Below, piece after piece: positions 5,786 through 61,116 of a stretch of DNA of 64,000 bases. The DNA is from Escherichia virus TH22, in sequence record MT446396.1; one strand, given 5' to 3'. Within the stretch, counting starts at the first letter, position 1. Every line of letters starts with the position of its first letter. A program made the position numbers and the translations under genes. Under the pieces are notes generated by a model that saw nothing but the letters and a program-made list of their open reading frames with translations, was not told the origin of the DNA and made no database searches.

Positions 5786-5980
5786 TGAAGAAATGAAGGT
5801 CTTCTTATCATATGGAAGACCCAATAAAGGTCGGCGCTGGTATCTCGAAGCAGTCTGTCGGAAAACTGGCAGACGAATCAACATTAAGTACACGTGTAAA
5901 CCAACTTCCAAACAAACCAGGCGTTTTGTTAACTGGGCTATCAATATTATAAGATTCCATAATTTTTGGAGTGCAATCTA

Positions 5981-6004
5981 AGGACCCTTCGGGGTCCTTT
6001 TTTA
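5981..6004 (+). terminator. intrinsic terminator
   Basis: GGACCCTTCGGGGTCC hairpin + T-run. Confidence 0.7.
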
Positions 6005-6084
6005 TTTTAAAAAGTAGTGTACAACAAGATGGTCATGAGGCATAATGATTCCATACTGAGTTACCAAATAAACTGGAGAATAAA
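6005..6084 (+). promoter_or_regulatory. early promoter with conserved leader (family B: CCATACTGAGTTACCAAA)
   Basis: AGTAGTGTACA, CATAAT -10, conserved leader, GGAGAATAAAATG. Confidence 0.55.
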
Positions 6085-6291
6085 ATGTTAGAATTAATCA
6101 AAGCTGCTGGTGAAAAAGGTCTGATGGTTAACACTCGTGACCCTGAACAACGTCAAGCATTTGGTGAGTTAAAAGCCAAAGGTCTGGTTAAAGCATCCCT
6201 TGGTATTGGTAATGCTTTGCGTGTGACTTTGACCCCTGCAGGTAAAGCAATGTTCTTCCCTAAACCATTACCAAAACGTCGTCGCAAGTGA
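6085..6291 (+). CDS. hypothetical basic-tailed protein
   Basis: 68-aa ORF after promoter cassette. Confidence 0.35.
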   Translation: MLELIKAAGEKGLMVNTRDPEQRQAFGELKAKGLVKASLGIGNALRVTLTPAGKAMFFPKPLPKRRRK

Positions 6292-6602: not shown

Positions 6603-6670
6603 GTGTACACAAGTATGGGAGCGTGGCATAATGTTCCTATACTGAGTTACCAAACAAACGGGAGAATAAA
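6603..6670 (+). promoter_or_regulatory. early promoter with family-B leader
   Basis: GTGTACA, CATAAT, CTATACTGAGTTACCAAA, GGAGAATAAAATG. Confidence 0.55.
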
Positions 6671-7195
6671 ATGGAAGCCAAATCAATCTTTAATCTGATT
6701 AATTACAATAATGGTAATTTTAAATCAGAAGCACAAAGCAAGTTCTTTAATGATGTTGCTTGTGCAGGTGAGATTACAGTATCAGGTGGTCAAACTTATA
6801 AAAACGCCTGGAACTGGATTGTGACTGTTGATTCAGTTGGTATTGTTGATGTGTATAAAAACACTAACAAAAACCGCTCTTTGTTCTGGTCAAGAGAGAC
6901 TAATGCTGAGTATCAAGCGGCAAGAGCAAAGAAAAATATGCCAACTGAATCTGATATCCAAAACATCAAATCAGATATCCAATATTATGATGGTCTGATT
7001 GCTGAACAACAAGCAGTGCTTGATAAGTTCAATGAAATCAAAGCATGTAAAGAGATTCCTGAATTCATGCGGGAATCAGTTAATGAACAATACAATCTCA
7101 CTTCAGAGCGTATTGAAACCTATACCAAACAAAGAGCAGAGCGCCAGGTACTCCTTCAGAAGTTTGAAGAGCGTTTAAAGACGGTTCTCGCATAA
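6671..7195 (+). CDS. hypothetical protein with C-terminal coiled coil
   Basis: 174-aa ORF. Confidence 0.4.
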   Translation: MEAKSIFNLINYNNGNFKSEAQSKFFNDVACAGEITVSGGQTYKNAWNWIVTVDSVGIVDVYKNTNKNRSLFWSRETNAEYQAARAKKNMPTESDIQNIKSDIQYYDGLIAEQQAVLDKFNEIKACKEIPEFMRESVNEQYNLTSERIETYTKQRAERQVLLQKFEERLKTVLA

Positions 7196-10774: not shown

Positions 10775-10775
10775 T

Positions 10776-11203: not shown

Positions 11204-11376
11204 CCGAATTTGATATGGCTTATAAAACCTGCGCAAGAGAGTTTGATACTCCTGCGCCTAGTAAAGAAACCGTATTGGCAAATCTCCCGGATTGGTTAAA
11301 AGAAGAAGCCAACGAATGGGGTTGGACTGATACTTGTGTACGCGACCAGTTATTTGAATTTATGGTGGAATTATGA
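11200..11376 (+). CDS. hypothetical small protein
   Basis: 58 aa, coupled. Confidence 0.3.
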   Translation: MTEFDMAYKTCAREFDTPAPSKETVLANLPDWLKEEANEWGWTDTCVRDQLFEFMVEL

Positions 11377-11681
11377 GTGAATTAGACGGACAAACAATTT
11401 ATCTGGGCGATGGCAACGAAGACGACCTGGAATATAAACTATACGAATACATGGTCGCCCTGGCAAAGGAAGAAGGTATTGACTTTGCTGTGGCTAACCC
11501 GTATGGTGAGAACACTGTTGTAATTGGTGGCACTGCTTATGAAGTCCAATGGCAATACGTTGGGCTTGAATCTATAGAATATGAAGAAGATAAGCATGGC
11601 GATTGGCATCCGGTGGGTCCCTGGTACTGGGACGACGGCGAGCCTGATTTTGAAGTATCAAGCTATTGGAGTGACCAATGA
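11373..11681 (+). CDS. hypothetical highly acidic protein
   Basis: 102 aa, Asp/Glu/Tyr/Trp-rich. Confidence 0.35.
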   Translation: MSELDGQTIYLGDGNEDDLEYKLYEYMVALAKEEGIDFAVANPYGENTVVIGGTAYEVQWQYVGLESIEYEEDKHGDWHPVGPWYWDDGEPDFEVSSYWSDQ

Positions 11682-11998
11682 CTATTGAAAATGAATTAGA
11701 TGTTGATGCTGTTTTAAGCGAAATCATTGAAGACCATGATGCGTTTACTGAATCATACGAGTTTGAATTTTCGGACTACCTGGTTCCGGTTGAATTAGGC
11801 GAATGGACACAAACCGGCAAATACCAATATCGCCAGGCAATTTATTTCAGCAAAAAACATAATGTGCATGTGGCTGTAAACGAAACTCGTACCGGTTCTT
11901 ATCATACCGACTGGGACCATATGGTCCCGACTGTTGAACTGGTTAAGCTCCAAGAACGTGTCGTAACCCAAACTATCAGAGAATGGATTACGCTATAA
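11678..11998 (+). CDS. hypothetical acidic protein
   Basis: 106-aa ORF. Confidence 0.35.
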   Translation: MTIENELDVDAVLSEIIEDHDAFTESYEFEFSDYLVPVELGEWTQTGKYQYRQAIYFSKKHNVHVAVNETRTGSYHTDWDHMVPTVELVKLQERVVTQTIREWITL

Positions 11999-12115
11999 AA
12001 CCATGGTATACCGCTCGATGGGAAACCGTCGAGCCAGAGGAACCTGTTTACAACGATTCCGAAATAGATTATAATGAACCTTCAAACAATGATTTAATCG
12101 ATATGGAGTTTGGAT

Positions 12116-12799: not shown

Positions 12800-13273
12800 A
12801 TGTTGTTGACTGGCAAATTATACAAAGAAGAAAAACAAAAACTTTATGATGCACAAGCTGGTAAGTGTCCAATTTGCCACCGTGATTTGGACTCCGATGT
12901 TCAGGCCAACCATCTTGACCATGACCACGAATTGAACGGGCCAAAAGCTGGTAAGGTTCGCGGGTTACTATGCAATCTGTGCAATGGGACAGAAGGACAA
13001 ATGAAGCATAAGTTCAGCCGTTCGGGTCTGAAAAGTCGCGATGTTGACTACCTGGAATGGTTAGAGAGTTTGCTTGTCTATCTGAAATCTGATTATACCG
13101 AAAACAATATTCACCCCAATTTTGTAACAGACAAAGCCAAAGAGTTCGGTCGTCTGGGGAAAGAAGAAATGATTCGGGAAATGCTTTTGAATGGTATGAC
13201 TTATAATGAATCTGACACCAAAACACAATTAATGGCTTCATTTAAGAAGCAGCTTAGAAAGAGTTTAAAATGA
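12800..13273 (+). CDS. 49: endonuclease VII (Holliday-junction resolvase)
   Basis: 157 aa; Zn site CPICH...CNLCN, HLDHDHELNGPKAGKVRGLLC; near-collinear with T4 gp49. Confidence 0.9.
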   Translation: MLLTGKLYKEEKQKLYDAQAGKCPICHRDLDSDVQANHLDHDHELNGPKAGKVRGLLCNLCNGTEGQMKHKFSRSGLKSRDVDYLEWLESLLVYLKSDYTENNIHPNFVTDKAKEFGRLGKEEMIREMLLNGMTYNESDTKTQLMASFKKQLRKSLK

Positions 13274-15087
13274 CAATTGAAAACGAAATTGAAGGATTGA
13301 TTCATAAAACTAATAAAGACCTTTTAAACGAGAATGCTAATAAAGATTCTCGTGTTTTTCCAACTCAACGGGACCTTATGGCTGGTATTGTATCTAAACA
13401 CATTGCCAAAAATATGGTCGCGTCTTTTATTATGAAAGCACATGAAAGTGGAATTATTCATTTCCATGATATTGATTATTCCCCTGCTCTTCCATTTACT
13501 AATTGCTGTTTAGTAGATTTAAAAGGAATGCTTGAGAACGGATTTAAGCTTGGTAATGCACAGATTGAAACTCCTAAATCAATCGGTGTTGCTACTGCAA
13601 TTATGGCACAAATTACTGCACAGGTTGCTTCTCACCAATATGGCGGAACGACTTTTGCTAATGTAGACAAAGTATTTTCTCCTTATGTTAAACGTACATA
13701 CGCAAAACATATTGAAGATGCAGAAAAATGGCAAATCACTGATGCATTGAATTATGCCCAATCTAAAACAGAAAAAGACGTATACGATGCATTCCAAGCT
13801 TATGAATATGAAGTAAATACGCTCTTTAGTTCAAATGGGCAAACGCCTTTTGTGACAATTACGTTTGGCACGGGAACTGACTGGACTGAACGAATGATTC
13901 AGAAAGCAATTCTGAAAAATCGTATCAAAGGTCTTGGTCGCGATGGGATAACTCCTATTTTCCCTAAACTTGTTATGTTCGTTGAAGAAGGTGTTAATCT
14001 TTATAAAGACGACCCGAACTATGATATTAAGCAGCTTGCTCTAGAGTGTGCAAGCAAAAGAATGTATCCTGATATTATTTCAGCTAAGAACAATAAAGCT
14101 ATCACTGGTTCATCTATTCCTGTTTCTCCAATGGGTTGCCGTAGTTTCTTGGGCGTATGGAAAGATTCGACTGGTAATGAAATTCTTGATGGACGTAATA
14201 ATCTTGGTGTTGTAACACTGAATCTTCCTCGCATTGCGTTAGATTCTTATATTGGAACACAGTTCAATGAACAGAAATTTATCGAATTGTTCAATGAGCG
14301 AATGGATTTGTGTTTTGAAGCTTTGATGTGTAGAATTAGTTCTTTAAAAGGAGTTAAAGCGACTGTTGCTCCTATTCTTTACCAAGAAGGTGCATTCGGG
14401 GTTCGTCTTAAACCTGATGATGATATAATTGAGTTATTTAAAAACGGTAGAAGTTCAGTGTCTTTGGGATACATTGGTATTCACGAATTGAATATTCTTG
14501 CCGGTCGTGATATTGGGCAAGAAATTTTAACTAAAATGAATGCTCGTCTTAAGCAGTGGACTGAAAGAACCGGTTTTGCTTTTAGTTTGTATTCTACACC
14601 TGCTGAAAACCTTTGTTATCGCTTCTGTAAACTTGATACTGAAAAATATGGAAGTGTAAAAGATGTTACCGATAAAGGATGGTACACTAACAGTTTCCAC
14701 GTTTCAGTAGAAGAAAATATTACTCCGTTTGAAAAGATTTCTCGCGAAGCCCCATATCATTTCATTGCGACAGGTGGTCACATTTCTTATGTTGAACTTC
14801 CTGATATGAAAAATAACTTAAAAGGTCTTGAGGCTGTATGGGATTATGCCGCGCAACATTTAGATTATTTTGGTGTTAATATGCCAGTAGATAAATGTTT
14901 TACGTGTGGAAGTACCCATGAAATGACTCCTACTGAAAACGGATTTGTTTGTTCTATTTGTGGAGAAACTGACCCTAAAAAGATGAACACAATAAGAAGA
15001 ACTTGCGGTTATTTGGGAAATCCGAACGAACGTGGATTTAATCTCGGCAAAAATAAAGAAATCATGCATAGGGTTAAACACCAATGA
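13270..15087 (+). CDS. nrdD: anaerobic ribonucleoside-triphosphate reductase
   Basis: 605 aa; C-terminal Zn ribbon CFTCG...CSICG and glycyl-radical region RTCGYLG. Confidence 0.95.
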   Translation: MTIENEIEGLIHKTNKDLLNENANKDSRVFPTQRDLMAGIVSKHIAKNMVASFIMKAHESGIIHFHDIDYSPALPFTNCCLVDLKGMLENGFKLGNAQIETPKSIGVATAIMAQITAQVASHQYGGTTFANVDKVFSPYVKRTYAKHIEDAEKWQITDALNYAQSKTEKDVYDAFQAYEYEVNTLFSSNGQTPFVTITFGTGTDWTERMIQKAILKNRIKGLGRDGITPIFPKLVMFVEEGVNLYKDDPNYDIKQLALECASKRMYPDIISAKNNKAITGSSIPVSPMGCRSFLGVWKDSTGNEILDGRNNLGVVTLNLPRIALDSYIGTQFNEQKFIELFNERMDLCFEALMCRISSLKGVKATVAPILYQEGAFGVRLKPDDDIIELFKNGRSSVSLGYIGIHELNILAGRDIGQEILTKMNARLKQWTERTGFAFSLYSTPAENLCYRFCKLDTEKYGSVKDVTDKGWYTNSFHVSVEENITPFEKISREAPYHFIATGGHISYVELPDMKNNLKGLEAVWDYAAQHLDYFGVNMPVDKCFTCGSTHEMTPTENGFVCSICGETDPKKMNTIRRTCGYLGNPNERGFNLGKNKEIMHRVKHQ

Positions 15088-15554
15088 ATTATGATAGATT
15101 TTATCCTTGTGATTTTGTGAATGGCCCTGGATGCAGGGTCGTTCTTTTCGTTACAGGTTGTTTGCATAAATGTGAAGGGTGTTATAATAAATCAACATGG
15201 AATGCTAGAAATGGGGTTCCATTCACTGGTGAAACACTAGAACAATTAATTGAATGTTTGAATAATGATTATATAGAAGGATTAACTATAACTGGAGGAG
15301 ACCCTCTCTATCCTGATAACCGAGATGTTATTCACTCTGTGGTTCAAACTGTTAAAAATCTTTATCCAAATAAAAGCATTTGGATGTGGACAGGATATAA
15401 GTTTGAAGATATTAAACAACTAGAAATGCTTAAATATGTTGATGTTATTATTGATGGGAAGTATGAGAAAAATCTTCCGACCAAAAAACTGTGGCGAGGG
15501 TCAGATAATCAGCGACTTTGGTCAAATACCGATGGGGTGTGGAAACATGATTAA
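15084..15554 (+). CDS. nrdG: anaerobic RNR activating enzyme (radical SAM)
   Basis: 156 aa; CxxxCxxC-type cluster CLHKCEGCYN; coupled to nrdD. Confidence 0.9.
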   Translation: MNYDRFYPCDFVNGPGCRVVLFVTGCLHKCEGCYNKSTWNARNGVPFTGETLEQLIECLNNDYIEGLTITGGDPLYPDNRDVIHSVVQTVKNLYPNKSIWMWTGYKFEDIKQLEMLKYVDVIIDGKYEKNLPTKKLWRGSDNQRLWSNTDGVWKHD

Positions 15555-32491: not shown

Positions 32492-33915
32492 AAACTATTT
32501 TATCCCAGCTACTCTTTAACAAGGAATATTTTGTTAAAGTCTGGCCATATCTGAATAGCACATATTTTGAAAAGGGTCCCGCGAAGACCCTTTTTAATAC
32601 GATTAACGAACACGTAAAAGAATATCAAGCTGTACCAACTAAGACTGCACTTGATATTGCACTTGACAACTCTGACCTTTCTGAAGTCGAATATGAAGGC
32701 ACAAAGAAACTTTTAGGAGTCCTGGCCGATACTCCAGAAGACCAGGAATGGTTGGTTAGAGAAACCGAAAAGTATGTACAGAAGTCTGCGATGTTCAATG
32801 CCACATCCAGGATTATCGAAATCCAGAGTAATGCCGAACTTCCTAAAGATAAACGTGATAAACGAATCCCGGATATCGGTGCTATCCCTGACATCATGCG
32901 TGATGCATTGTCCATCTGTTTTGATTCTGCCCTTGGTCATGACTGGTTAAACGATTACGAGGCTCGATTCCAGACTTATCTGAACAAATCGAAGAAAGTT
33001 CCGTTCCGCATTAACATCCTGAATAAAATTACGAAAGGCGGGGTTGAGTACGGTACAGAGAACGTTTTACTAGCCGGGACGAATGTCGGTAAATCTCTGG
33101 GGCTTTGTTCGTTAGCGGCTGACTATCTTCAGACTGGTCATAACGTTCTTTATATAAGCATGGAAATGGCCGAAGAAGTATGTGCCAAACGTATTGATGC
33201 CAACTTGCTGGATGTATCTCTGGATGATATTGATGAAGGTCATATATCATGGGCGGAATATAAAGCTAAGATGGAAAAATGGCGTGCTTCCGGGACTCTC
33301 GGGACTCTGAAGATAAAACAATATCCAACTGGTGGTGCTCATGCGGATACCTTCCGTGCATTACTGAACGAGTACAAACTGAAGCAAGGGTTTGTACCGG
33401 ATGTGATTATTGTTGACTACCTGGCAATCTGTGCAAGCTCAAGACTGAAAACGTTTACCGAAAACAGTTACGGCCTGATTAAGATGGTTGCAGAAGAACT
33501 TCGTGGTCTGGCAGTTGAGAAAAATGTGGTCTTGTGGACTGCAGCGCAGACAACCAGGGGCGCGAACGTTGCAGCCGAGATTGATATGGCTGACATTGCA
33601 GAATCCTTTGGTATTGCTCACACGGCTGACTTTATGCTGGGTGTTGTTGAGACCGAAGAATTCGCTCAAATGGGGCTGCAGTTAATCAAACAGCTTAAGT
33701 CTCGTTATGGTGATAAGAACTACTATAATAAATTCAAGATGGGTGTTAAGAAAGGTAATCAGCGCTGGTATGAGGTTGATGATGATTCGGCTCCTAAACA
33801 AGGCCCTACGGTTAAAGAAGCCACCGGTGAGATGAATCGCCAGGCCGAAATGAATCGACAAACCAGGGTCAACAGGAGCGACCTGGATGACCTTGCTGCT
33901 CAAATGAAATTTTAA
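32485..33915 (+). CDS. 41: replicative DNA helicase gp41 (DnaB-like)
   Basis: 476 aa from GTG with AAGAGG SD; Walker A GTNVGKS; collinear with T4 gp41. Confidence 0.9.
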   Translation: MVETILSQLLFNKEYFVKVWPYLNSTYFEKGPAKTLFNTINEHVKEYQAVPTKTALDIALDNSDLSEVEYEGTKKLLGVLADTPEDQEWLVRETEKYVQKSAMFNATSRIIEIQSNAELPKDKRDKRIPDIGAIPDIMRDALSICFDSALGHDWLNDYEARFQTYLNKSKKVPFRINILNKITKGGVEYGTENVLLAGTNVGKSLGLCSLAADYLQTGHNVLYISMEMAEEVCAKRIDANLLDVSLDDIDEGHISWAEYKAKMEKWRASGTLGTLKIKQYPTGGAHADTFRALLNEYKLKQGFVPDVIIVDYLAICASSRLKTFTENSYGLIKMVAEELRGLAVEKNVVLWTAAQTTRGANVAAEIDMADIAESFGIAHTADFMLGVVETEEFAQMGLQLIKQLKSRYGDKNYYNKFKMGVKKGNQRWYEVDDDSAPKQGPTVKEATGEMNRQAEMNRQTRVNRSDLDDLAAQMKF

Positions 33916-33925
33916 AATATTTTAA

Positions 33926-33949
33926 AAGGGGCTTACGGCCCCTTTTTCT
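33926..33949 (+). terminator. intrinsic terminator
   Basis: GGGGCTTACGGCCCC hairpin + TTTTT. Confidence 0.65.
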
Positions 33950-33986
33950 TATGTTATAATGACCCTATCAACTACTGGAGAATAAA
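33950..33986 (+). promoter_or_regulatory. early promoter with family-A leader
   Basis: TATAAT 33955-33960 then CTATCAACTACTGGAG. Confidence 0.5.
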
Positions 33987-34304
33987 ATGAAAACTATTGA
34001 TTGCAAGGCGGAATACAAAGTTTATTATCATGGCTCAAGCTCTAATGCTGGAATCCAAAATATGCTTTGCCCTCCTGATGCAACTGGTGTTCTGTCAGAA
34101 GTTGGGCGTAAGAAAAATTTAGGGCGTGTGTTTTTTACTGAAGATATTGGTTTGGCGCGTATCTATGCAGGAAGAGCAGCTCGCTCATATGGAGGAGAAC
34201 CCCGTCTTTATCGTGTGATTGCACCTGTTGACGTGGTTTGTTTAAATGATACTAAAGGCGCAACCGTTTATCACGCCGCCTGGGCCTTCTGTGAGGAAAT
34301 CTAA
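33987..34304 (+). CDS. hypothetical protein with PARP-like HGS / G-x-[VI]-[FY]-F-[AT]-[DE] motifs
   Basis: 105 aa; YYHGSSSNAGI ... GRVFFTEDIGLARIY resembles the NAD-binding signature of H-Y-E class ADP-ribosyltransferases; too short for a full catalytic domain. Confidence 0.4.
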   Translation: MKTIDCKAEYKVYYHGSSSNAGIQNMLCPPDATGVLSEVGRKKNLGRVFFTEDIGLARIYAGRAARSYGGEPRLYRVIAPVDVVCLNDTKGATVYHAAWAFCEEI

Positions 34305-41922: not shown

Positions 41923-41998
41923 GTGTACATGAAAGATGAACGGTGTATAATAATTTCATACTGAGTTACCAAATCGTCCGTAAGATGAGAAAAATATC
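41923..41998 (+). promoter_or_regulatory. early promoter with family-B leader
   Basis: GTGTACA, TATAAT, TTCATACTGAGTTACCAAA. Confidence 0.5.
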
Positions 41999-42745
41999 AT
42001 GACTTTATCAAAAACCAAAACGCTGAAAGTTAAACGTCGCCTGGAACACACTCAAGCTTCTGCTAAACGTCGTGGCAAGGACTTTAACCTGGATTTCAAT
42101 TACCTGGTTAACATTCTTGACCAAAAAGTTTGTGCTTATTCTGGTGAAACATTTAATAACTCTATTGAAGGTGAGAAGTTATCATTAGAGCGTTTTAACA
42201 ATGACATTGGTTATATCAAAGGTAATGTTATTCCTGTTAAAAAGAAATACAACACCATGCGTTCTGATTGGTCCCTGGATGAGCTTAAACAACGTCGTGA
42301 TGATGTTGCTGTAAAAATTGCTCGTCCATCTGTCAAGAAGATTGAAAAGTTAAATCTGACTGCAGAGAAATGGGAACAGATTAAAAAGTCATATACCCAT
42401 ATCAAGAACATCCAACACAAACGTGAGAATCGCGTTAAGCATTATGCTCAAATGAGTAAATCAGAGCAGTCCAAAGAAAACCAATTAAAAATGGTTGCTC
42501 TGAAGGCTCGCATTGATGGTTCCCGTATTGCGGAAGGTCATGAGCTTACTAAATTGAACGTCTTGCTCAAAGGTAATGACTGGAAAGTTACCAAGAAATT
42601 AACTAATGCTGAAACGCTTTTTGATTGCTATGATAAAATCATTCAAGGTCTTGAGCGTTTTGAGAAGATTGGTTTTATTGGTAAATTAAAACTGAAACGT
42701 GGTCTGCCTTTGAACGCGTCAATTTTTAAACTGATTAGAGGTTAA
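41999..42745 (+). CDS. srd: Srd-like protein (by synteny) with degenerate HNH-like N-terminal module
   Basis: 248 aa between mod genes and dda; CAYSG...LSLERFNNDIGYIKGNV resembles an HNH motif lacking catalytic His; Lys-rich C-terminal half. Confidence 0.35.
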   Translation: MTLSKTKTLKVKRRLEHTQASAKRRGKDFNLDFNYLVNILDQKVCAYSGETFNNSIEGEKLSLERFNNDIGYIKGNVIPVKKKYNTMRSDWSLDELKQRRDDVAVKIARPSVKKIEKLNLTAEKWEQIKKSYTHIKNIQHKRENRVKHYAQMSKSEQSKENQLKMVALKARIDGSRIAEGHELTKLNVLLKGNDWKVTKKLTNAETLFDCYDKIIQGLERFEKIGFIGKLKLKRGLPLNASIFKLIRG

Positions 42746-45325: not shown

Positions 45326-45386
45326 GTGTACAAGGCCAATGGAAAGAGACATAATCATCTCATCAACTACTGATGAGGATAACAAA
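45326..45386 (+). promoter_or_regulatory. early promoter with family-A leader
   Basis: GTGTACA, CATAAT, CTCATCAACTACTGATGAGG. Confidence 0.5.
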
Positions 45387-46402: not shown

Positions 46403-46474
46403 GTGTACAAACTCTTGGGGTCAGAGTATAATGACCCCACTGGAGAATAAACTTATTAACCAAGAGAGAAAATT
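46403..46474 (+). promoter_or_regulatory. PeSL-type cassette (family C)
   Basis: GTGTACAAACTCTTGGGGTCAGAGTATAATGACCCCACTGGAG; 43 nt identical to 57280..57322. Confidence 0.6.
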
Positions 46475-53341: not shown

Positions 53342-54313
53342 ATGTTTAATATCAAATGTATGTCTAAAGCCGAACAAGCTGATGTGGTCCAGATGTATTC
53401 AACGGGCAATTATACCCAGCCTGAATTGGCAGAATATTTTGCTGTGTCCGTTGACACCATTCGCCGCGTTTTGAAAAATGATAAAGAATCAAAATTAGCT
53501 AAAACCATTTCTGCATCACTGAAAGCAGCTGTTGGTGTGGCGATTAATGCTCCGGTGACAGTAACGGTTGAAGTCCCGGTTACTGATACAATCGGCGGAA
53601 GCCGACCGGAAATCGTATGGAATGCATCAAGCAAATTCGTTTCCATCACTGAAGGCCGTACAGTCTGGAACGCAACAAAAGACCATAAACACTTTGATGA
53701 TATTATTCAGGCACTCAAAGAATCTCGTTTTGACGATGCTATCGAGTTTATCTCAATCAAAGCTGCAGTACAAAAATATGTGAAAGGCGATGTGCGTATT
53801 GAAGGCGGTAGTCTGTTCTATCAGGGAATTGAACTGCGCTCTGGTCTGGTTACTCGTATCATCGATTCAATGCAAAATGGCGAAGACTTTGAATTCTATC
53901 TGCCGTTCCTTGAGAATCTCCTTGAGAACCCGAGTGAGAAAGCTGTGCAGCGTTTGTTTGACTTCCTGGTTGCAAACGATATCGAAATCACCGAAGACGG
54001 TCATTTCATCGCATGGAAAATGGTTCGTGCAACTTACAAAGATTGTCACTCAAACACATTCGACAACAGCCCTGGTCAATATGTTAAAATGCCGCGCTCT
54101 CGTGTGAATGACAACGACGAACAAACCTGTTCAACTGGACTGCACGTTTGTTCTAAAGGTTATATCGGAAGTGGTTTTGGTCATGGTGATGGACGCATCG
54201 TATCCTGTAAAGTTCACCCGCGTGATGTTGTAAGTATCCCGGTTGATTATAACGATTCCAAAATGCGGGTCTGTGGTTACTTAGTCCTTGATGATGTAAC
54301 TGAACAATTCTAA
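53342..54313 (+). CDS. rIIB: rIIB
   Basis: 323 aa; collinear with T4 rIIB (MFNIKCMSK..., SPGQYVKMPRSRVNDNDEQTCSTGLHVCSKGYIG). Confidence 0.95.
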   Translation: MFNIKCMSKAEQADVVQMYSTGNYTQPELAEYFAVSVDTIRRVLKNDKESKLAKTISASLKAAVGVAINAPVTVTVEVPVTDTIGGSRPEIVWNASSKFVSITEGRTVWNATKDHKHFDDIIQALKESRFDDAIEFISIKAAVQKYVKGDVRIEGGSLFYQGIELRSGLVTRIIDSMQNGEDFEFYLPFLENLLENPSEKAVQRLFDFLVANDIEITEDGHFIAWKMVRATYKDCHSNTFDNSPGQYVKMPRSRVNDNDEQTCSTGLHVCSKGYIGSGFGHGDGRIVSCKVHPRDVVSIPVDYNDSKMRVCGYLVLDDVTEQF

Positions 54314-54346
54314 ATTAATCGGGGCTTCGGCCCCTAATGAGGCTTT

Positions 54347-54544
54347 ATGTTAGGTTTCCAAGCACGTGCAGTTGAAGAACATGACCAGCTGGTTTTGAAA
54401 ATTAATGCTCTTGAAGAATTTATTAAGGGCGGTGTTTTTGAAACTCTCGATGCTCGTCAACAAGGTCTTTTGATTGCCCAGTTAGATGCGATGGGTGCTT
54501 ATGCTCATGTACTGGCAACTCGTATCTCTTATTTTGGTGAATAA
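54347..54544 (+). CDS. hypothetical protein
   Basis: 65-aa ORF. Confidence 0.3.
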   Translation: MLGFQARAVEEHDQLVLKINALEEFIKGGVFETLDARQQGLLIAQLDAMGAYAHVLATRISYFGE

Positions 54545-54872: not shown

Positions 54873-55466
54873 ATGATTCAGAAGAGTAAAACATGGGAGC
54901 ATCTGAAAAAGATGCCCTCCTTTCTTTATACAAAGGAAGACTTAACCCCCGAATCCCTGCAAAAGATTGTAGACACTGCCAGGTATTCATTGCGTAAAGA
55001 CCCAGGTCAGGACCGTGAGCAAGTCATGCAAAGATGTATGGTGGCTACAATGGCTGAACAAGCTATTGCTAAATGGACTTCAGGTTTTTTATGTGGTGGC
55101 GATGAAGATTACGATAATCCTTATTCCTTTGCATTTGATGTAGTTTCGAAGGAAGGGGTGAGAATCGAAGTCAAGACCCACCAGTCTGGTTCCAAATGGA
55201 TATCCGTGCATACTGGTCACCAGGGTGATTATCCGCATGGTTACGGGATTAATCTTGGTCCTTTTATGCAGCACAAGCTTGCCGACCTTATGATTATGCT
55301 CGATGTAAAAGAGACTCTCAAAGGTTGTAGATTTAAACCAAAATTCCTTGCTGGACCTGGTGCTTTCGTTCCTGAGTCTGGTCTTGTGCAGAAGTCACAA
55401 GGGGATGGTTGGTACCTCCGTTCTTGTTCAGAAGAAAAATTTCCCTATCACCGGTTTACAAGCTGA
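54873..55466 (+). CDS. hypothetical protein with PD-(D/E)xK-like motif (candidate nuclease)
   Basis: 197 aa; FDVVSKEGVRIEVK fits the D-x(n)-E-x-K pattern; in the interval where T4 has denB. Confidence 0.35.
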   Translation: MIQKSKTWEHLKKMPSFLYTKEDLTPESLQKIVDTARYSLRKDPGQDREQVMQRCMVATMAEQAIAKWTSGFLCGGDEDYDNPYSFAFDVVSKEGVRIEVKTHQSGSKWISVHTGHQGDYPHGYGINLGPFMQHKLADLMIMLDVKETLKGCRFKPKFLAGPGAFVPESGLVQKSQGDGWYLRSCSEEKFPYHRFTS

Positions 55467-55513
55467 ACCAACTATGTAATAATGTCCTCATACCAACAAA
55501 TGAGGGCATTATC

Positions 55514-55789
55514 ATGGAACACGTTACTACTCACAACATCAAACAAATTCTTATTCAAGCACTCAAAAACAATAACATCAATTTTCCAACCCATGAAATT
55601 TTTGATGTGGTATTCAACGAAGTTCAGGGTCAAGTTGCATATTATGACGTTATCGTTTATCTTTCAGAATTTGAAGTCTATCACCTGACTGAAATTGCTT
55701 TCTATCTCTATCGTGGGACTGCAGATTTCACTGGGGTTGTGAATGCAGTTGGTGCATATAAAGAAGTTAAAGAACAAATGCAAAATTAA
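55514..55789 (+). CDS. hypothetical protein
   Basis: 91-aa ORF. Confidence 0.3.
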   Translation: MEHVTTHNIKQILIQALKNNNINFPTHEIFDVVFNEVQGQVAYYDVIVYLSEFEVYHLTEIAFYLYRGTADFTGVVNAVGAYKEVKEQMQN

Positions 55790-55799
55790 TTAAAAAGTA

Positions 55800-55864
55800 G
55801 TGTACATCAGTATGGAGTCTATTGTATAATGATTCCATACTGAGTTACCAAACTGGAGAATAAA
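55800..55864 (+). promoter_or_regulatory. early promoter with family-B leader
   Basis: AGTAGTGTACA, TATAAT, TTCCATACTGAGTTACCAAA. Confidence 0.55.
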
Positions 55865-56020
55865 ATGAAACCTGCTCAATATGCAATGACTTTATACCTT
55901 GAAGTTAATGGCGATATTACTGAATTTTTTAAATTAATGCAACAACGCGGAAAAAGTTTTGCAGTTACTGAGCGTCAATTTTACGCTTGCCGTAAAAATA
56001 CATACAATCGTTATGCGTGA
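55865..56020 (+). CDS. hypothetical small protein
   Basis: 51 aa; below track cutoff. Confidence 0.25.
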   Translation: MKPAQYAMTLYLEVNGDITEFFKLMQQRGKSFAVTERQFYACRKNTYNRYA

Positions 56021-56030
56021 GGAAAACAGA

Positions 56031-56291
56031 ATGGATATTAAATTATACTACGCCAAACACAAAGTTACAGGTAAAGTTGTTGCCGCCATGTACGATGCAT
56101 CAGGTGAAGATGTTATTACGGAATTATCCCTTTCTAATTGTAGATTTCTTCGTCCTTTGCTAGCATCAAAAAAAGATTTACAAAAACTTATCGACGGTAA
56201 ATTAGATAATGTCGATGGTATAGATATTCATTATGAACTCCGCCATGCACTGAATGATGGGTTTATGGAAATAAAAGAGATAGTATTATGA
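56031..56291 (+). CDS. hypothetical protein
   Basis: 86-aa ORF. Confidence 0.3.
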   Translation: MDIKLYYAKHKVTGKVVAAMYDASGEDVITELSLSNCRFLRPLLASKKDLQKLIDGKLDNVDGIDIHYELRHALNDGFMEIKEIVL

Positions 56292-56381
56292 GTAGCAAAA
56301 CCTGGTGTCTTATCTGGATGTTGTGTATCCCAGTAATTTGCGTTTGTTTTAGTTTATTATTATTGAAACTTGCATAAAAGA

Positions 56382-56436
56382 GTGTACATCTCCAGTGGTT
56401 GTAGTATAATGAACCTATCAACTACTGGAGATGATT
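56382..56436 (+). promoter_or_regulatory. early promoter with family-A leader
   Basis: GTGTACA, TATAAT, CCTATCAACTACTGGAG. Confidence 0.5.
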
Positions 56437-56547
56437 ATGAAAAACTTACTTAAAGCAATTTGGAACATGTTTGTGTTGTTAATGGTATTGAGCATTTTCC
56501 CAATCGTTTTTATGATTGACCATGTACGTGTATTCTTTAACTTCTGA
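56437..56547 (+). CDS. hypothetical small hydrophobic peptide
   Basis: 36 aa, one transmembrane-like helix; GGAG SD. Confidence 0.25.
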   Translation: MKNLLKAIWNMFVLLMVLSIFPIVFMIDHVRVFFNF

Positions 56548-56557
56548 GGAAAATATT

Positions 56558-56704
56558 ATGGGTAATCGAATTTATAAAGTAAAGCTGCACGGTAAAGTGA
56601 TTGCAACCCTTAGCTTTAATGCTTATATCAGTGCTGATTGTGCTCGTGATATCCTCATTGAGGAAGGTTATAGCAAATACATCCAAATTGAAGAAATTCT
56701 TTAA
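56558..56704 (+). CDS. hypothetical small protein
   Basis: 48 aa; TTCTGAGGAAAATATTATG leader, the same leader repeated before 56722. Confidence 0.25.
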   Translation: MGNRIYKVKLHGKVIATLSFNAYISADCARDILIEEGYSKYIQIEEIL

Positions 56705-56721
56705 CTTCTGAGGAAAACATT

Positions 56722-56925
56722 ATGAAACTTTTTAAAGATGTTGCAGTTGGTGAGAGCTTTGTATTACATAATGGTCAACAACTGATTCGTATTTCTCCTT
56801 TACAAGTTGGCGGCGAATTACAGCCTGTAAATGCTACAGACCTTTATGATTCAACTAAGCGTTTTTGCGTAGGCCCTAGTGTACAGTGCCTTACCGTTGA
56901 TGAACTGATGGCTATTTCTGAATAA
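56722..56925 (+). CDS. hypothetical protein
   Basis: 67-aa ORF with the same leader. Confidence 0.3.
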   Translation: MKLFKDVAVGESFVLHNGQQLIRISPLQVGGELQPVNATDLYDSTKRFCVGPSVQCLTVDELMAISE

Positions 56926-56935
56926 GGAAAATATT

Positions 56936-57280
56936 ATGTCTAAAGTATTTTTTGGTAATCGCAACATTATGTTCTTTAAACAGATTAGCGTATCAGAAGC
57001 ATTTGATTTAAGTTATTCAGGTGGTACAAAAGCTGTTAACCTTAAAAATTTGATGTCTGCAGAATTTGCATTCTATCAGGACCCTGAAACTGGTTTCTAC
57101 AAATTTATTAAGTTCCGCATGACTATGGACCGAGATTATCGCGATGTTTATTATACAAGTTATGAGAGTGTTATCAATGCAATTCGCGAAGCTTATGGAT
57201 TGGATTCGTTGTCTCTTGACCGCTTGTATAATGCTACTTTTTATACGAGCGGATTTATTTTAGAACAACTTCAAAAATAG
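56936..57280 (+). CDS. hypothetical protein
   Basis: 114-aa ORF. Confidence 0.3.
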   Translation: MSKVFFGNRNIMFFKQISVSEAFDLSYSGGTKAVNLKNLMSAEFAFYQDPETGFYKFIKFRMTMDRDYRDVYYTSYESVINAIREAYGLDSLSLDRLYNATFYTSGFILEQLQK

Positions 57281-57353
57281 TGTACAAACTCTTGGGGTCA
57301 GAGTATAATGACCCCACTGGAGCACAAAACTTTAACTTACTGAGGAAATTAAT
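57281..57353 (+). promoter_or_regulatory. PeSL-type cassette (family C)
   Basis: 43-nt core identical to 46403..46445. Confidence 0.6.
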
Positions 57354-57803
57354 ATGACTACTTACATGACCCGTCGTGACGTACTGAATGCTGGCGCTAC
57401 CACTGTTGCTTACATCCATAATGGTAATTATGTCGCAGGGCGTCCAACTAAAGAAGCTATCACCCAACCAGGTTTTTATTTCGTGGTTAAAGGTGAAGGC
57501 GAATCACGTATTGTTGCTGCACGTTTTTACGTTGGTAACCAACGTTCACAACAAGGGTTTGACACTGTATTAAGTCACATCCGCAAACAGCGTTCTCAAC
57601 TGTCTCGCACAATGGCGAACAATGGTGTTATCTATGAAGTCCTGTTTGTTCCAGTTTCTAAAATGAAACCTCTGACAACTGGTTATGGTAAAGGTCAAAT
57701 TGCGATGGCGTTCACACGCTCGCATAGTTCTGATTGCCAGACCCTTTCAGAAATGAATCGCATGCTTGCTGATAACTTTAAATTCATTCTGCAGAGTTAT
57801 TAA
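57354..57803 (+). CDS. ndd: nucleoid disruption protein Ndd
   Basis: 149 aa; position upstream of stp/52 and recalled similarity to T4 Ndd ([31 protein letters not shown]). Confidence 0.55.
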
Positions 57804-57804
57804 T

Positions 57805-57978
57805 ATGAGACATTTCTTTGCAATGGGTTACTTATTTGTTTTAGCACTATTTGTTATTACAGGAGCCTTTATAGCCTTTGGCGCTCCATTTAATGATAAA
57901 GTTGCTGTTACTATGTGCTTTAGTGGTGGGTATATCTGTTTTGAACGCTTATGCAAAATGTGTGGTATATATGAGTAA
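57805..57978 (+). CDS. hypothetical small membrane protein
   Basis: 57 aa hydrophobic; below track cutoff. Confidence 0.3.
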
Positions 57979-58051
57979 TTTCCATAATGAACATGTGATG
58001 CAATGGCATCGTCATAATCTGAAATTAACTGGCGTCTTCGGGCGCCCTTGA
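57971..58051 (+). CDS. stp: Stp peptide (activator of host anticodon nuclease PrrC via EcoprrI)
   Basis: 26-aa [29 protein letters not shown]; length, position (ndd-stp-52) and sequence match T4 Stp as recalled. Confidence 0.6.
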
Positions 58052-58058
58052 GGAAAAT

Positions 58059-58220
58059 ATGATTATCCTAGTTTTTATTGAACTTATTATAGCTATTGTT
58101 TGTTCGGTTTGCTTCTTTTTAGGCGTGTGGACCCCTGGTCCGCTATTCTTAAGTTTTCTGTTTATTGGCTGGATTCTTTCTACTTTTGTCGGTTTACTTA
58201 AGATGATTAAAAATGATTAA
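58059..58220 (+). CDS. hypothetical small membrane protein (ac-like by position)
   Basis: 53 aa hydrophobic, between stp and gene 52; below track cutoff. Confidence 0.3.
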   Translation: MIILVFIELIIAIVCSVCFFLGVWTPGPLFLSFLFIGWILSTFVGLLKMIKND

Positions 58221-58361
58221 GAAAATCCTGGGCTACTCGTTAGCCCTTGCTGCCTTATTGGTAGCGCTGTATTATGGAGTTGTATTTGCATTAGTGCAGA
58301 TTGTGCTTTTTATTTCTGATGCTATAATGGCAGTACATTCGTTAATCTGGTAAGGTGATAT

Positions 58362-59741
58362 ATGTCTGACGTTTTAAGTATGATGTCCAAACAGTTCAGT
58401 GATTCCATGGGGACCCTTAACCCACGCAGTCTAAAAGACATTATTGATGTGGAAGCATTGTCATATGCTATCTACACTGTGGAAGGTCGTGCCATCCCAA
58501 ACATGATTGATGGTTTTAAACCAGTTCACAGATTTGTTATGGCGAGAGCATTAGACCTGGCACGCGGTGATAAGAATAAATTTCATAAGGTTGCATCCAT
58601 CGCAGGTGGCGTAGCTGATTATGGTTATCACCATGGTGAAGCATCAGCGGAAGAAGCAACTTCTGGTCTGGTTGCAACATATAAAAATGAATATCCTATG
58701 TTTGATGGGCAAGGTAACTTTGGTTCCAGAATGGTGCCAGAAGCATCATCAGCTCGTTATGTATTCGCAAGGGTTTCAAAGAACTTTTATAACTTGTTTA
58801 AGGATACAGAATATGCTCCGGTCCATCCTGATGAAGAACATAAGCCTCCTGCTTTTTATCTTCCTGTTATTCCTACTGTATTACTTAACGCCACTTCTGG
58901 GATTGCTGTTGGCTTCGCTACTGATATTCTGCCTCATTCGTTCCAGGACGTCAAGGAAGCTGTTAAAGCTATCGTGGAAGGTCGGGAACCGGTTGCTCCG
59001 AAAGTAAAATATCCAGAATTCCGCGGTAAAGTGGTTGAGCTGGAAGAGCCTGGCAAGTATGAGCTTCATGGCACATACAAAATGACTTCCAGGACCCAAA
59101 TGGAAATTACTGAAATTCCGGTCCAATGGAACCTGGAAAAGTATACAAGTAAAATACTTGACCCGTTGGAAGAGAAAGGTTTTATCACCTGGAAAGATAA
59201 CTGCGGTGAGCATGGTTTTGGGTTTAAGATTAAATTCCGCAAAGAATACAAGTTGGATGGTACTGAACAAGAAAATCATGAGAAAATCATGAAAGACTTT
59301 GGTCTGATTGAGAAGCTCTCCCAGAACTTAACGGTGCTTAATCACAAAGGCAAACTGGCCGAATACACCAACACGCTTGACCTGATTCGCGATTTCGTTG
59401 ATGTTCGTAAGACTTATGTTCAAGTGCGAATTGACAGTAAGATTAAAGAAACTGAAGCAGCGTTTAAACTGGCCCGGGCAAAAGTATTCTTTATTAAAGA
59501 AGTGATTGACGGTAAGGTTGTTATCCAGGGGAAACCTCGTAAGAAGTTGATTGAGGAACTCCAGGCGAGTGAAATATATGGCGATTATGCAGAGAAGTTA
59601 GTGGCGATGAACATCTACCATATGACCTCTGATGAAGCCAAGAAGCTTGCAGACGAAGCAAAGGCTAAGAAAGCTGAGCATGAGTACTGGAAGACAACTG
59701 ATGTTAAAACTGAATACCTTAATGATTTGGAGGCTCTATGA
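58362..59741 (+). CDS. 52: DNA topoisomerase II medium subunit gp52 (GyrA-like)
   Basis: 459 aa; collinear with T4 gp52 (AIPNMIDGFKPV.RF, active-site region SSARYVFARVS). Confidence 0.9.
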   Translation: MSDVLSMMSKQFSDSMGTLNPRSLKDIIDVEALSYAIYTVEGRAIPNMIDGFKPVHRFVMARALDLARGDKNKFHKVASIAGGVADYGYHHGEASAEEATSGLVATYKNEYPMFDGQGNFGSRMVPEASSARYVFARVSKNFYNLFKDTEYAPVHPDEEHKPPAFYLPVIPTVLLNATSGIAVGFATDILPHSFQDVKEAVKAIVEGREPVAPKVKYPEFRGKVVELEEPGKYELHGTYKMTSRTQMEITEIPVQWNLEKYTSKILDPLEEKGFITWKDNCGEHGFGFKIKFRKEYKLDGTEQENHEKIMKDFGLIEKLSQNLTVLNHKGKLAEYTNTLDLIRDFVDVRKTYVQVRIDSKIKETEAAFKLARAKVFFIKEVIDGKVVIQGKPRKKLIEELQASEIYGDYAEKLVAMNIYHMTSDEAKKLADEAKAKKAEHEYWKTTDVKTEYLNDLEAL

Positions 59742-59834
59742 GTTTTGGAGTGGAGTTTGCATTGCTTTGTATTTTTGCGGCAATCGCAGGTGTGATTGTT
59801 GGTATGTTTATTGGTAATAAGATAGATAAAGACT

Positions 59835-59858
59835 AGGACCCTTCGGGGTCCTTTTTTA
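59835..59858 (+). terminator. intrinsic terminator
   Basis: GGACCCTTCGGGGTCC + TTTTTT; same hairpin as at 5982. Confidence 0.7.
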
Positions 59859-59949
59859 TTTTAAAAAGTAGTGTACAATCCCCTTGACCCGCTGCATAAT
59901 AATTCCATACTGAGTTACACAATGAATCACAAAAACTTTGGAGAATAAA
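59859..59949 (+). promoter_or_regulatory. early promoter with family-B leader
   Basis: AGTAGTGTACA, CATAAT, TTCCATACTGAGTTAC. Confidence 0.5.
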
Positions 59950-60165
59950 ATGTTTACTGCACAACAGAATGAAGGTCAAGAATACATTAACATCAAATTC
60001 AAATCTAACAAAGAAGCTTGCTATTACTACTTTGACATGTTCAAACTGGCGAATTCTAAAGAAGAACGTAAACAAGCGATTGATGTGATTGTTTCTACTT
60101 CCCATATGAAACGTACTGTGGTACAATCATATGCATCAAATTACATGAAATCTATTAAGGGATAA
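59950..60165 (+). CDS. hypothetical protein
   Basis: 71-aa ORF. Confidence 0.3.
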   Translation: MFTAQQNEGQEYINIKFKSNKEACYYYFDMFKLANSKEERKQAIDVIVSTSHMKRTVVQSYASNYMKSIKG

Positions 60166-60167
60166 TT

Positions 60168-60776
60168 GTGAACAAGTTAAATTATATCGTTAAATGCTCC
60201 CAGAACGCGCTGCATGAGACTGATGTCAATGCTCTGGTGTTTGTATACAAAAACAACTTTGTGAGTCCAGAGGTTGTTTTAGACCAGCAGAACACATCAA
60301 TTGATAGTGTGCAGACCTTGTTGAATAACAACTATGTTGAAGCTTCTGGTGATGGTTTGATGATTACAGAAAAGGGTGTTGGCCTTATTCTGGATGCAGC
60401 TGAACTTTGGGCGAATGAAAATAATCCTGACCTTCTGGAAGTGAAGAAGACAAGAACAAAACGCGGTGTGACTGATGAAATGGAAGCGACTGCAGAATAT
60501 ATCAAAGAGCAATTGTTGTCTATTGATATTGACTTTAAGAGCATTTCAGAAGACCGCAGCAATCTGATTGTGAAGTTCAAGCGTATCAAGACATTAAAAC
60601 AGATTGATGTACGTCGTGATGGTCAGATTCGCGTACATGCGTATAATACTGAACAAAAGATAGTAAAACAGTTTACAGACGTGGGATTTAGCGTTAAAGT
60701 GGGTGGATTGAATACCTACATTGACAACGTTATGTCAACTGAAAACATTCAACATGTTATTAACATCTTAAAGTGA
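60168..60776 (+). CDS. motA: MotA-like middle-transcription activator (by synteny)
   Basis: 202 aa, GTG start with AGGGA SD; between gene 52 and asiA as T4 motA. Confidence 0.45.
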   Translation: MNKLNYIVKCSQNALHETDVNALVFVYKNNFVSPEVVLDQQNTSIDSVQTLLNNNYVEASGDGLMITEKGVGLILDAAELWANENNPDLLEVKKTRTKRGVTDEMEATAEYIKEQLLSIDIDFKSISEDRSNLIVKFKRIKTLKQIDVRRDGQIRVHAYNTEQKIVKQFTDVGFSVKVGGLNTYIDNVMSTENIQHVINILK

Positions 60777-60783
60777 GGAAATT

Positions 60784-61116
60784 ATGAATAAGCTGAATAT
60801 TGTTAATGAATTGCGCGCTTGTGTAGAACCTACTCAAGAGGGTTGGGATGTTTGGTATCATGGCGCTTACCTTGGAACTATTATCAAGGTCAAAGCTGGT
60901 CAGTATCTTATCCATCGTCAGGATGATGCAGTAGCTCCGTTTGGTGCACGCAAGAACTTCATGGCAGCGATTGGTGCCTTTGTTCCAGCAGCATATGAAG
61001 TATATAAAGCTGACTACAAAGAATACCAGGAATCACAACCAGTTATTCGCTCAATTGGTGTTAATAAAGCTCAACAGAAAAGTCTGTGGCAACGTGTTAA
61101 AGGTTGGTTCAAATGA
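60784..61116 (+). CDS. hypothetical protein
   Basis: 110-aa ORF. Confidence 0.3.

Follow-up and report, generated by a model that had tools for sequence, protein, structure and literature searches.

The 64,000-nt stretch of Escherichia virus TH22 analyzed here (MT446396.1, one strand, referred to below as the window) carries five copies of a short regulatory cassette, in which a promoter is followed by a conserved leader, named family B, and by the start codon of a gene. The window spans the prereplicative region, whose gene order, assigned by homology with phage VR7, is vs-tk-nrdC-49-55-47/46-45/44/62-43-uvsX-41-61-56-soc-modA/B-srd-dda-motB-39-rIIA/B-denB-ndd-52-motA-asiA-t. Between 54 and 58 kb it is 100% identical to Escherichia phages UPEC07 and TH55 (Gaprivervirus, Tevenvirinae), whereas over the first 12 kb (1 to 12000) the identity to TH55/UPEC07 is only 93.6%, and the closer relatives there are UPEC01 (96.3%) and VR25 (95.2%). 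The phage is thus a mosaic that arose by recombination among Gapriverviruses, not an RB49-like phage (Krischvirus). The first-pass annotation of this DNA had drawn its comparison with RB49-like phages; the identity to UPEC07 and TH55 places the source in the VR7/TH55 group of Gaprivervirus.

Five cassette copies in the window

A search with the 19-mer TCCATACTGAGTTACCAAA, allowing up to three mismatches, returned exactly five matches in the window, all on the + strand, at 6050 and 55834 (no mismatches), 41955 (one mismatch), and 6636 and 59904 (two mismatches each). Shuffled sequences gave an expectation of 0.01 matches, and none of 100 shuffles reached five. Every copy has a [C/T]ATAAT hexamer 3 to 4 nt on its 5' side and a TGTACA hexamer 16 to 18 nt before that, the latter starting at 6018, 6604, 41924, 55801, and 59872; promoters were also called at 6018, 6604, 55801, and 59872 by an independent consensus scanner. 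These results confirm in five of five copies the first-pass proposal of a second leader family, placed after promoters and before the ATGs at 6085, 6671, 41999, 55865, and 59950, which open reading frames (ORFs) of 68, 174, 248, 51, and 71 aa, respectively. The strictly invariant core of the family is the 12-mer ATACTGAGTTAC, at 6053, 6639, 41958, 55837, and 59907, and the upstream motif AGTAGTGTACA is exact in just three of the five copies, reading AAATGTGTACA at 6636 and AGTGGTGTACA at 41955. The -35 hexamer is preceded by an A-rich tract (AAAAAGTAG or TTAATTAAA), and this A-run is conserved in the information-content profile of 21 non-orthologous copies. At the other end, GGAG or GAG lies 6 to 8 nt 5' of the ATG in every copy. 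Two copies are preceded by the same exact GGACCCTTCGGGGTCC, at 5982-5997 and 59836-59851, each followed by TTTTTTATTTT and labeled terminator-like by the scanner; the shared terminator had been noticed before, with starts (5981 and 59835) that are off by one base or take in a flanking A. The elements of the copy at 55.8 kb (copy 4), which serves as the reference, are listed in Table 1 with the other copies and the genes behind them.

TABLE 1 Elements of the reference cassette, the other four copies, and the genes that they precede (window positions)
Feature	Position	Strand	Details
A-tract/UP-like element AAAAAGTAG	55792..55800	+	Begins 3 nt past the stop codon of the upstream ORF (55787-55789)
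Sigma70-type early promoter (predicted)	55801..55830	+	-35 TGTACA 55801-55806, 18-nt spacer, -10 TATAAT 55825-55830; 10/12 consensus matches
Inverted repeat around -10	55807..55843	+	5' arm TCAGTATGGAGTC 55807-55819, 3' arm GATTCCATACTGA 55831-55843; 13 pairs, one G-T
Discriminator GATTCC	55831-55836	+	Sequence of the reference copy
12-mer ATACTGAGTTAC	55837..55848	+	7 nt past the -10 hexamer, predicted +1 to +12; +1 from spacing only
GGAGAATAAAA, Shine-Dalgarno and exact optimal RegB/S1 site	55855-55865	+	Overlaps ATG 55865-55867; short A-rich linker on its 5' side
51-aa ORFan, predicted to be driven by the reference copy	55865..56020	+	No Pfam or PHROG match
Copy 1	5980..6087	+	C(UUCG)G terminator 5980-5999 and T-run, -35 6018-6023, -10 6041-6046, core 6053-6064, RegB/Shine-Dalgarno 6075-6085, ATG 6085
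Copy 2	6604..6673	+	-35 6604-6609, hairpin arms 6612-6622/6633-6643, -10 6627-6632, core 6639-6650, RegB/Shine-Dalgarno 6661-6671, ATG 6671
Copy 3	41924..42001	+	-35 41924-41929, -10 41946-41951, core 41958-41969, ancestral srd leader/Shine-Dalgarno CGTCCGTAAGATGAGAAAAATATC, ATG 41999; no RegB-type Shine-Dalgarno
Copy 5	59835..59952	+	Terminator 59835-59852, -35 59872-59877, -10 59895-59900, core 59907-59918, RegB/Shine-Dalgarno 59940-59950, ATG 59950
68-aa RB69-ORF102c-like protein	Start 6085	+	phrog_6001, VR7 annotation
nrdC.8	Start 6671	+	phrog_2274, VR7 annotation
Srd	Start 41999	+	phrog_1400, E = 1e-98
71-aa ORF directly before motA	Start 59950	+	Gene order in VR7 and UPEC07

The orthologs of the reference promoter in VR20, VR25, and VR26 have a 17-nt spacer. 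A second promoter overlaps the cassette at copy 5 (59884-59911), formed by TTGACC (59884-59889) and, at N16 spacing, CATACT (59906-59911), so that the first bases of the family-B leader would be used as its -10. In four genomes the TTGACC at 59884 never changes, unlike the spacer bases on either side of it, and it is also present at the 125421 site of TH55. As a general cause of the conservation of CATACT, the TTGACC-N16-CATACT arrangement was rejected because it applies to just two or three site classes.

A RegB site in the Shine-Dalgarno block

An efficient RegB/S1 site, cut between the G and the A of its GGAG, is an 11-nt single-stranded GGAGRAYARAA, for which the T4 optimum is GGAGAAUAAAA (Durand et al. 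2006, PMC1702504). The Shine-Dalgarno (SD) block of the cassettes matches this optimum exactly at 6075, 6661, 55855, and 59940; the 41958 copy lacks the 11-mer. Exact GGAGAAUAAAA sites number five in the window against 0.06 expected; four of them are the SD of family-B cassettes, and the fifth, at 33977, terminates another leader family. In TH55 there are 10 exact sites, all on the early-gene strand, seven of which lie inside family-B cassettes. The regB gene itself is annotated beside vs in VR7; in TH55 it was found by tblastn (99% identity) about 1.1 kb upstream of the window start and thus outside the window. Furthermore, the leaders are predicted to be unstructured from +1 onward, with minimum free energies of -1.4 to -4.6 kcal/mol and z-scores of -0.3 to +1.5, and the GGAG is unpaired in the predicted centroids of copies 1, 4, and 5. 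A small hairpin within the leader (AGUU/AACU) was also considered and rejected as too weak, the leaders being less structured than their shuffles. Since the SD is an exact RegB/S1 target, we infer that the cassette mRNAs would undergo a burst of translation and then inactivation by RegB.

The other leader family, (C/T)ATCAACTACTG(A/G), follows other early promoters of the window, at 33955-33990, 45327-45370, and 56383-56412, and the same ATCAACTACTGA leader occurs in T4 at about 27.08 kb. The stretch at 33920-33990 is composed of a terminator (GGGGCTTACGGCCCC and a T-run), a TATAAT -10 without a TGTACA -35, the leader ATCAACTACTG, and the RegB 11-mer at 33977; the VR25 counterpart of its hairpin is GGGG-TGTACA-CCCC, with the -35 inside the loop. 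The promoter at 56383 has a spacer, TCTCCAGT, with complementarity to the SD region ACTGGAGA.

Conservation of the 12-mer

Mismatches per site were calculated among 17 non-orthologous Gaprivervirus copies (paralogs) and among orthologs. The most conserved part of the cassette in both comparisons is the 12-mer core (0.026 in paralogs and 0.009 in orthologs), above the -10 hexamer (0.086 and 0.028), followed by the discriminator (0.235 and 0.082) and the spacer (0.63 and 0.159); the adjacent coding sequence gave 0.70 and 0.058. The 12-mer is identical in Morganella phage MP1 despite unrelated spacers and is identical across five genera. The T4 early promoters of the homologous 50 kb do not agree in the first bases transcribed, with a pairwise mismatch of 0.70 versus 0.026 here. 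Several T4 leaders carry a related motif, CTACTGAGGA, whose GAGG is the SD.

The 12-mer has no dyad symmetry, and a search of both strands, in the window and in TH55, found no antisense partner for it. A scan of 55000-61000 with Rfam 15 gave three sub-threshold chance matches only, none of them on the leader, and a full-text literature search with the 12-mer and its reverse complement retrieved no paper, the VR7 and MP1 papers not describing the motif. Further readings, as a box for LexA or for MotA, as the consensus of NAD-capping promoters, or as a T7 epsilon-like complementarity to 16S rRNA, were dropped on inspection alone, each matching a few bases at most. The 12-mer could be merely an optimized start region that doubles as a hairpin arm and a secondary -10, or it could be a recognition element.

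Stem-loops associated with the cassettes

The five copies differ in the stem-loop that accompanies them. Those at 6053 and 59907 lie behind a C(UUCG)G terminator, GGACCC-UUCG-GGGUCC followed by a U-run, and other cassettes show the variants GGGACUC-UUCG-GAGUCCC and GGACC-UUCG-GGUCC. The copies at 6639 and 55837 have no upstream terminator; there, the spacer and the discriminator/+1 region supply the two arms of an inverted repeat around the -10, with predicted folds of -19.2 kcal/mol (z = -3.79) and -21.3 kcal/mol (z = -4.33), respectively, and at 55837 none of 2,000 spacer shuffles reached the helix length. The 41958 copy has just a weak 6-bp stem option (P = 0.07). Taken over all 19 site classes, this complementarity is significant against spacer shuffles in 7; in most of the others a terminator lies upstream or the -35 is enclosed by a G5...C5 stem, as in the TH55 copy at 124372. 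The discriminator varies among classes (GATTCC, GTTCCC, GTTCCT, TATCCC, and GATTTC), and in a covariation swap test the spacers formed 4.83 paired positions with their own discriminator versus 2.68 with swapped ones, the former value being reached by none of 265 derangements, in a set of few independent classes that includes one spurious metagenome entry.

Elsewhere in the window, the promoters before motB (46404-46445) and ndd (57281-57322), 11 kb apart, share an identical 36-nt stretch, TGTACAAACTCTTGGGGTCAGAGTATAATGACCCC, with a GGGGTC/GACCCC stem around the -10, an architecture like that of the cassette hairpins. The motB promoter of T4 has GGGACC/GGTCCC in this place, a double compensatory change.

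Distribution and downstream genes

A blastn search with the cassette found it in about 30 Gaprivervirus genomes, at 10 to 14 places in each, and at five places in Morganella phage MP1. One copy each was found in Tequatrovirus ESH35/ECp13, Dhakavirus IME341, two Providencia phages, and Morganella phage Rgz1. The IMG/VR scan recovered VR20, VR25, VR26, and MP1 only, and a metagenome scan gave 58 loci, about 44 of which were chance matches to a 17-mer and 14 true cassettes on Gaprivervirus-like contigs. The single copy of the other genera sits in the 32-frd region before a gene of the DUF5417 family, and this gene also has the cassette in TH55 and, twice, in MP1. Judged from these sequences, the family-B cassettes look like a lineage-specific expansion of one ancestral promoter/leader. 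The genes led by a cassette belong to 15 unrelated protein families in the five genomes compared, and a Pfam search with the five downstream proteins of the window gave no matches.

One of these families is paralogous and includes the 71-aa ORF (59950-60165), which is homologous to the C-terminal half of proteins of 141 to 147 aa, with which it has the motif VVQSYASNF/Y in common, and each of these homologues is likewise headed by a family-B cassette (TH55, MT446421.1, at 124903 and 125421; MP1, at 4846 of the locus). Additionally, the only family-B cassette of Escherichia phage fDHCT2 (OR427838.1, 2440-2900) lies at the denB site, with 96% identity, and the gene after it (MKFKFYYIKHK...) is a diverged paralog, in tandem, of the MDIKLYYAKHK gene. 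It is possible that the denB-ndd segment of fDHCT2 was imported from Gaprivervirus.

Rearrangements at cassette sites

At 55.8 kb, the cassette is fixed and the gene 3' of it varies among relatives, with three gene arrangements after the cassette rather than the same flanks throughout. The first gene is the 51-aa ORF in the window and TH55, an unrelated 68-aa ORF in VR26, and the divergent paralog in fDHCT2; in VR7, VR20, and VR25 the MDIKLY gene follows the cassette directly, with no 51-aa ORF. The junctions fall at the SD-ATG microhomology GGAGAA(T)AAAATG / GAGGAAAA(T/C)A(A/G)AATG. At another site, VR20 and VR25 have an extra 98-aa gene between two tandem cassettes, and TH55 and VR26 have in their place one chimeric cassette, with the crossover within ATACTGAGTTA, inside the 12-mer. 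A 424-bp module (terminator, cassette, and 100-aa ORF) is present in VR7, VR20, VR25, and VR26 and absent from the window (about 33915-33923) and from TH55. At the 6.0-kb copy, insertions of 217 to 790 bp separate the terminator from the -35, and the VR26 promoter of this site is chimeric. In chimeric cassettes, the upstream half comes from one site and the downstream half from a different one.

The first-pass view of the downstream ORFs as shuffled accessory genes holds for the 51-aa ORF (55865) only, since nrdC.8, srd, the RB69-ORF102c-like gene, and the head of the motA operon are syntenic across the genus. The module junctions showed no terminal inverted repeats and no target-site duplications, and no nuclease or transposase gene is consistently linked to the cassettes. 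Thus, shuffling at cassettes is demonstrated yet not dominant, and nothing points to a mobility mechanism dedicated to them.

The copies also differ in which of their parts are shared. The terminator-to-(-35) blocks at 5982-6024 and 59836-59878 are identical over 43 nt although 54 kb apart, and the copies at 6053 and 59907 have an identical -10/+1 block with unrelated spacers. In the srd copy (41958), the leader CGTCCGTAAGATG up to the start codon is orthologous to the T4 srd leader, and the likeness to family B is confined to the promoter and start region, where T4 has ATAAGTAGTTAAC. By sequence comparison, then, the cassette is modular and not one mobile unit, and in the srd copy only the promoter/+1 module appears to have been joined to a leader that is ancestral.

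The chimeric junctions of two short contigs from metagenomes (L052 and L072) were kept out of the primary evidence, since assemblers can mis-join reads across a repeat of 30 to 45 nt. The L072 contig (OEQM01003037.1, 1,076 bp) joins the upstream flank of the cassette on the nrdC.11 side to the downstream half of a second cassette, with its gene, that lies 18.6 kb upstream in TH55. This topology is that of an excised circle or a duplication junction, or it may be a chimera produced by assembly across the repeat.

Other variable genes of the window

Two further differences from relatives were observed. The window and TH55 carry nrdD (605 aa; PF13597, E = 3e-170) and nrdG (156 aa) at 13270-15554, and VR7 and MN01 have 124 bp in their place; the genes for anaerobic ribonucleotide reductase are therefore polymorphic, a segment of 2.4 kb being present or absent. 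VR7 and MN01 have, directly after rIIB, an HNH endonuclease gene of about 500 bp (953-1444 of the VR7 locus) that the window does not have (54305-54347).

DISCUSSION

In our view, the five copies in the window are likely to belong to a family of composite cassettes that regulate immediate-early genes, are of the T4-type PeSL class (early promoter with stem-loop), and have expanded in Gaprivervirus. PeSL cassettes have been reported in RB49/phi1 (Arbiol et al. 2010, PMC2839356) and in T4/PST and KVP40/nt-1 (Comeau et al. 2014, PMC4122927), and the likeness to them claimed in the first-pass annotation stands, because the anatomy matches the published one: an A-T-rich tract, sigma70-like -35 and -10 hexamers, a variably placed stem-loop, an SD, and an ATG within about 100 bp. 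The published stem-loop varies in position as well and lies most often between the two hexamers or across the -10. Published PeSLs are further marked by promoter and terminator activity in reporters and by mini-circles that form during infection. Both kinds occur in many copies per genome, are oriented with early transcription, and adjoin indels or replacements that set close relatives apart, also in the denB-ndd hyperplastic region, which has been discussed for T4/PST. However, the Gaprivervirus cassettes have TGTACA as -35, where RB49 has TTGACA and T4 has TTTACW, and their stem is not of the GN-loop-CN type save in one copy outside the window. They also begin the transcript with an invariant 12 nt that is not described in the PeSL papers, and, where PeSLs lie preferentially in hyperplastic regions upstream of ORFans, most window copies head conserved genes, only the 55837 copy preceding a variable ORFan.

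The resemblance extends to other elements of T4. Early promoters of T4 are of the UP/-35/TGn/-10 type and, like the cassettes, combine a UP-like A-tract, a GTTTAC-like -35, 17-nt spacing, and a TATAAT-like -10 before prereplicative genes (PMC2988021); the srd and motB promoters of the window are positional orthologs of those of T4, but the T4 promoters do not share a transcript start as the cassettes do. The RegB/S1 sites of T4 (PMC1702504) are similar in their exact optimum, their intergenic and, by prediction, single-stranded context, and their role as SD of early genes, including the leader of the motA operon. The difference is that most of the perfect sites predicted in Gaprivervirus come within one repeated cassette (7 of 10 in TH55). 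The terminator of copies 1 and 5 has its own counterpart, as Tuerk et al. are said to have described C(UUCG)G tetraloop hairpin terminators in T4 intercistronic regions in 1988. The GGACCC-UUCG-GGGUCC hairpins with U-run at 5982 and 59836 would fit that description, with the difference that the terminator, A-tract, and -35 form one 43-nt block here.

From these features, a course of events can be proposed. Host sigma70 RNA polymerase would recognize the A-tract, the TGTACA -35, and the [C/T]ATAAT -10, as suggested by the sequence and by what is known of T4. Transcription would start at the A of ATACTGAGTTAC, as the spacing indicates, and produce an A-rich leader of 28 to 43 nt, predicted to be unstructured. 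Its end, GGAGAAUAAAA-UG, would act as a strong SD and an optimal RegB/S1 target, the translation burst being followed by probable cleavage within GGAG. The stem-loop, in the form of a C(UUCG)G terminator with U-run or of a hairpin made by the promoter spacer and the discriminator/+1 region, may insulate the unit from upstream transcription or mark the 3' end of the upstream RNA, as suggested by the PeSL reporter assays in RB49/phi1. Finally, the identical blocks of 25 to 45 nt (terminator to -35, -10 to +12, and SD-ATG) may offer homology patches for phage recombination, whose proposed products, chimeric cassettes, gene indels, and ORF swaps, are seen in the comparative data.

Several observations weigh against the cassette interpretation. 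The conservation of the 12-mer above that of the -10 hexamer is left unexplained by it, and all functional steps proposed above draw on sequence and on experiments in T4 or RB49. The hairpin that brackets the -10 was rejected as a canonical intrinsic terminator, as no U-run follows it. At 6639, 41958, and 59907 the flanks are unaltered in the comparison of TH55, VR7, and MN01, and many indels of the window lie at boundaries without a cassette. Among about 33 distinct gaps in the window, about three fall at the five cassettes versus about 1.4 expected, a rough estimate from random placement on about 120 gene boundaries; the enrichment is weak, and the idea of the five cassettes as clear breakpoint hot spots fails against this gene-boundary null.

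Among the alternatives, selection might simply hold one optimal early promoter and leader before each of a set of co-regulated immediate-early genes, leaving a regulon signature that plays no part in gene shuffling, with the nearby indels due to the ordinary gene-boundary plasticity of hyperplastic regions. This agrees with the syntenic and stable state of three of the five sites, the weak breakpoint enrichment, the presence of the conserved srd, nrdC.8, and motA operon among the downstream genes, and functional blocks that are fixed while the spacer varies freely; the ORF swaps at 55.8 kb also use SD-ATG microhomology on their right side and no second cassette. It does not account for the crossover inside the 12-mer at the tandem-cassette indel, a whole terminator-cassette-ORF module present or absent between genomes, or chimeric cassettes that mix halves of two sites, and the growth from one copy in other genera to 10 to 14 in Gaprivervirus needs the copying of a unit. 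We hold this explanation to be possible but doubtful. Leader identity could also be kept by gene conversion without function, since T4-type phages recombine at very short homologies (PMC2839356) and some pairs share long identical blocks, such as the 43 nt at 5982-6024 and 59836-59878. However, the blocks are split by a 17-nt spacer near random divergence (0.63), which conversion tracts would not repeatedly skip, and the 12-mer is invariant between genera unable to convert each other continuously. Moreover, substitution in the core among orthologs (0.009) is six-fold below that of the adjacent coding sequence (0.058), and concerted evolution of this kind seems quite improbable. A mobile element with a dedicated insertion enzyme, autonomous or non-autonomous, either of the miniature inverted-repeat transposable element or insertion sequence type or a homing cassette, would fit the multiple copies, their presence or absence together with a small ORF, and a genome rich in homing endonucleases (VR7 annotation). 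It is nevertheless hardly credible given module junctions without terminal inverted repeats or target-site duplications, the lack of a consistently linked nuclease or transposase, downstream genes of 15 unrelated families, and copies that are all co-oriented with early transcription and placed exactly at gene starts.

A separate question is whether the 12-mer is a dedicated recognition element that defines a sub-regulon, as a DNA operator at +1 to +12 through which a phage factor shuts these early promoters off, or as an RNA tag at the 5' terminus, read by a phage or host protein that acts on stability, translation, or processing. Its conservation exceeds that of the -10 hexamer in paralogs and orthologs, it is identical in five genera with wholly different spacers, and its first base coincides with the predicted +1. 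Promoters do not require it in general, as the early promoters of T4 in the homologous 50 kb do not start alike, and the mechanism of early-promoter shut-off in T4 is stated as unknown (PMC2988021). However, the 12-mer has neither dyad symmetry, nor a partner sequence on either strand, nor an Rfam match; at some sites the constraint may come partly from CATACT as an overlapping -10 or from the 12-mer as a hairpin 3' arm, and the GAGG of the related T4 motif CTACTGAGGA is merely the SD. On this evidence a recognition role appears unlikely. Equally speculative is its extension, in which ATACTGAGTTAC would be the operator or RNA tag of about 10 immediate-early mRNAs, spread by Gaprivervirus from the single promoter of a DUF5417 gene to a dozen genes as a new sub-regulon.

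Returning to the PeSL-class cassette, what is new is its occurrence in Gaprivervirus as a family with a built-in optimal RegB site, the kind of cassette being already known. PeSL-type cassettes thereby reach a fourth T4-like lineage, and about 30 sequenced genomes provide a natural data set for cassette-mediated gene shuffling that is much larger than the phage pairs first studied. The 12-nt transcript start could bear on how early transcription is shut off in T4-type phages. The cassette consists of separable modules (terminator/-35, -10/+1, and RegB-SD), and the last of these brings a perfect RegB site to each gene placed behind it. Because the RegB site is delivered with the cassette, promoter strength, translation, and programmed mRNA inactivation would be inherited as one package.

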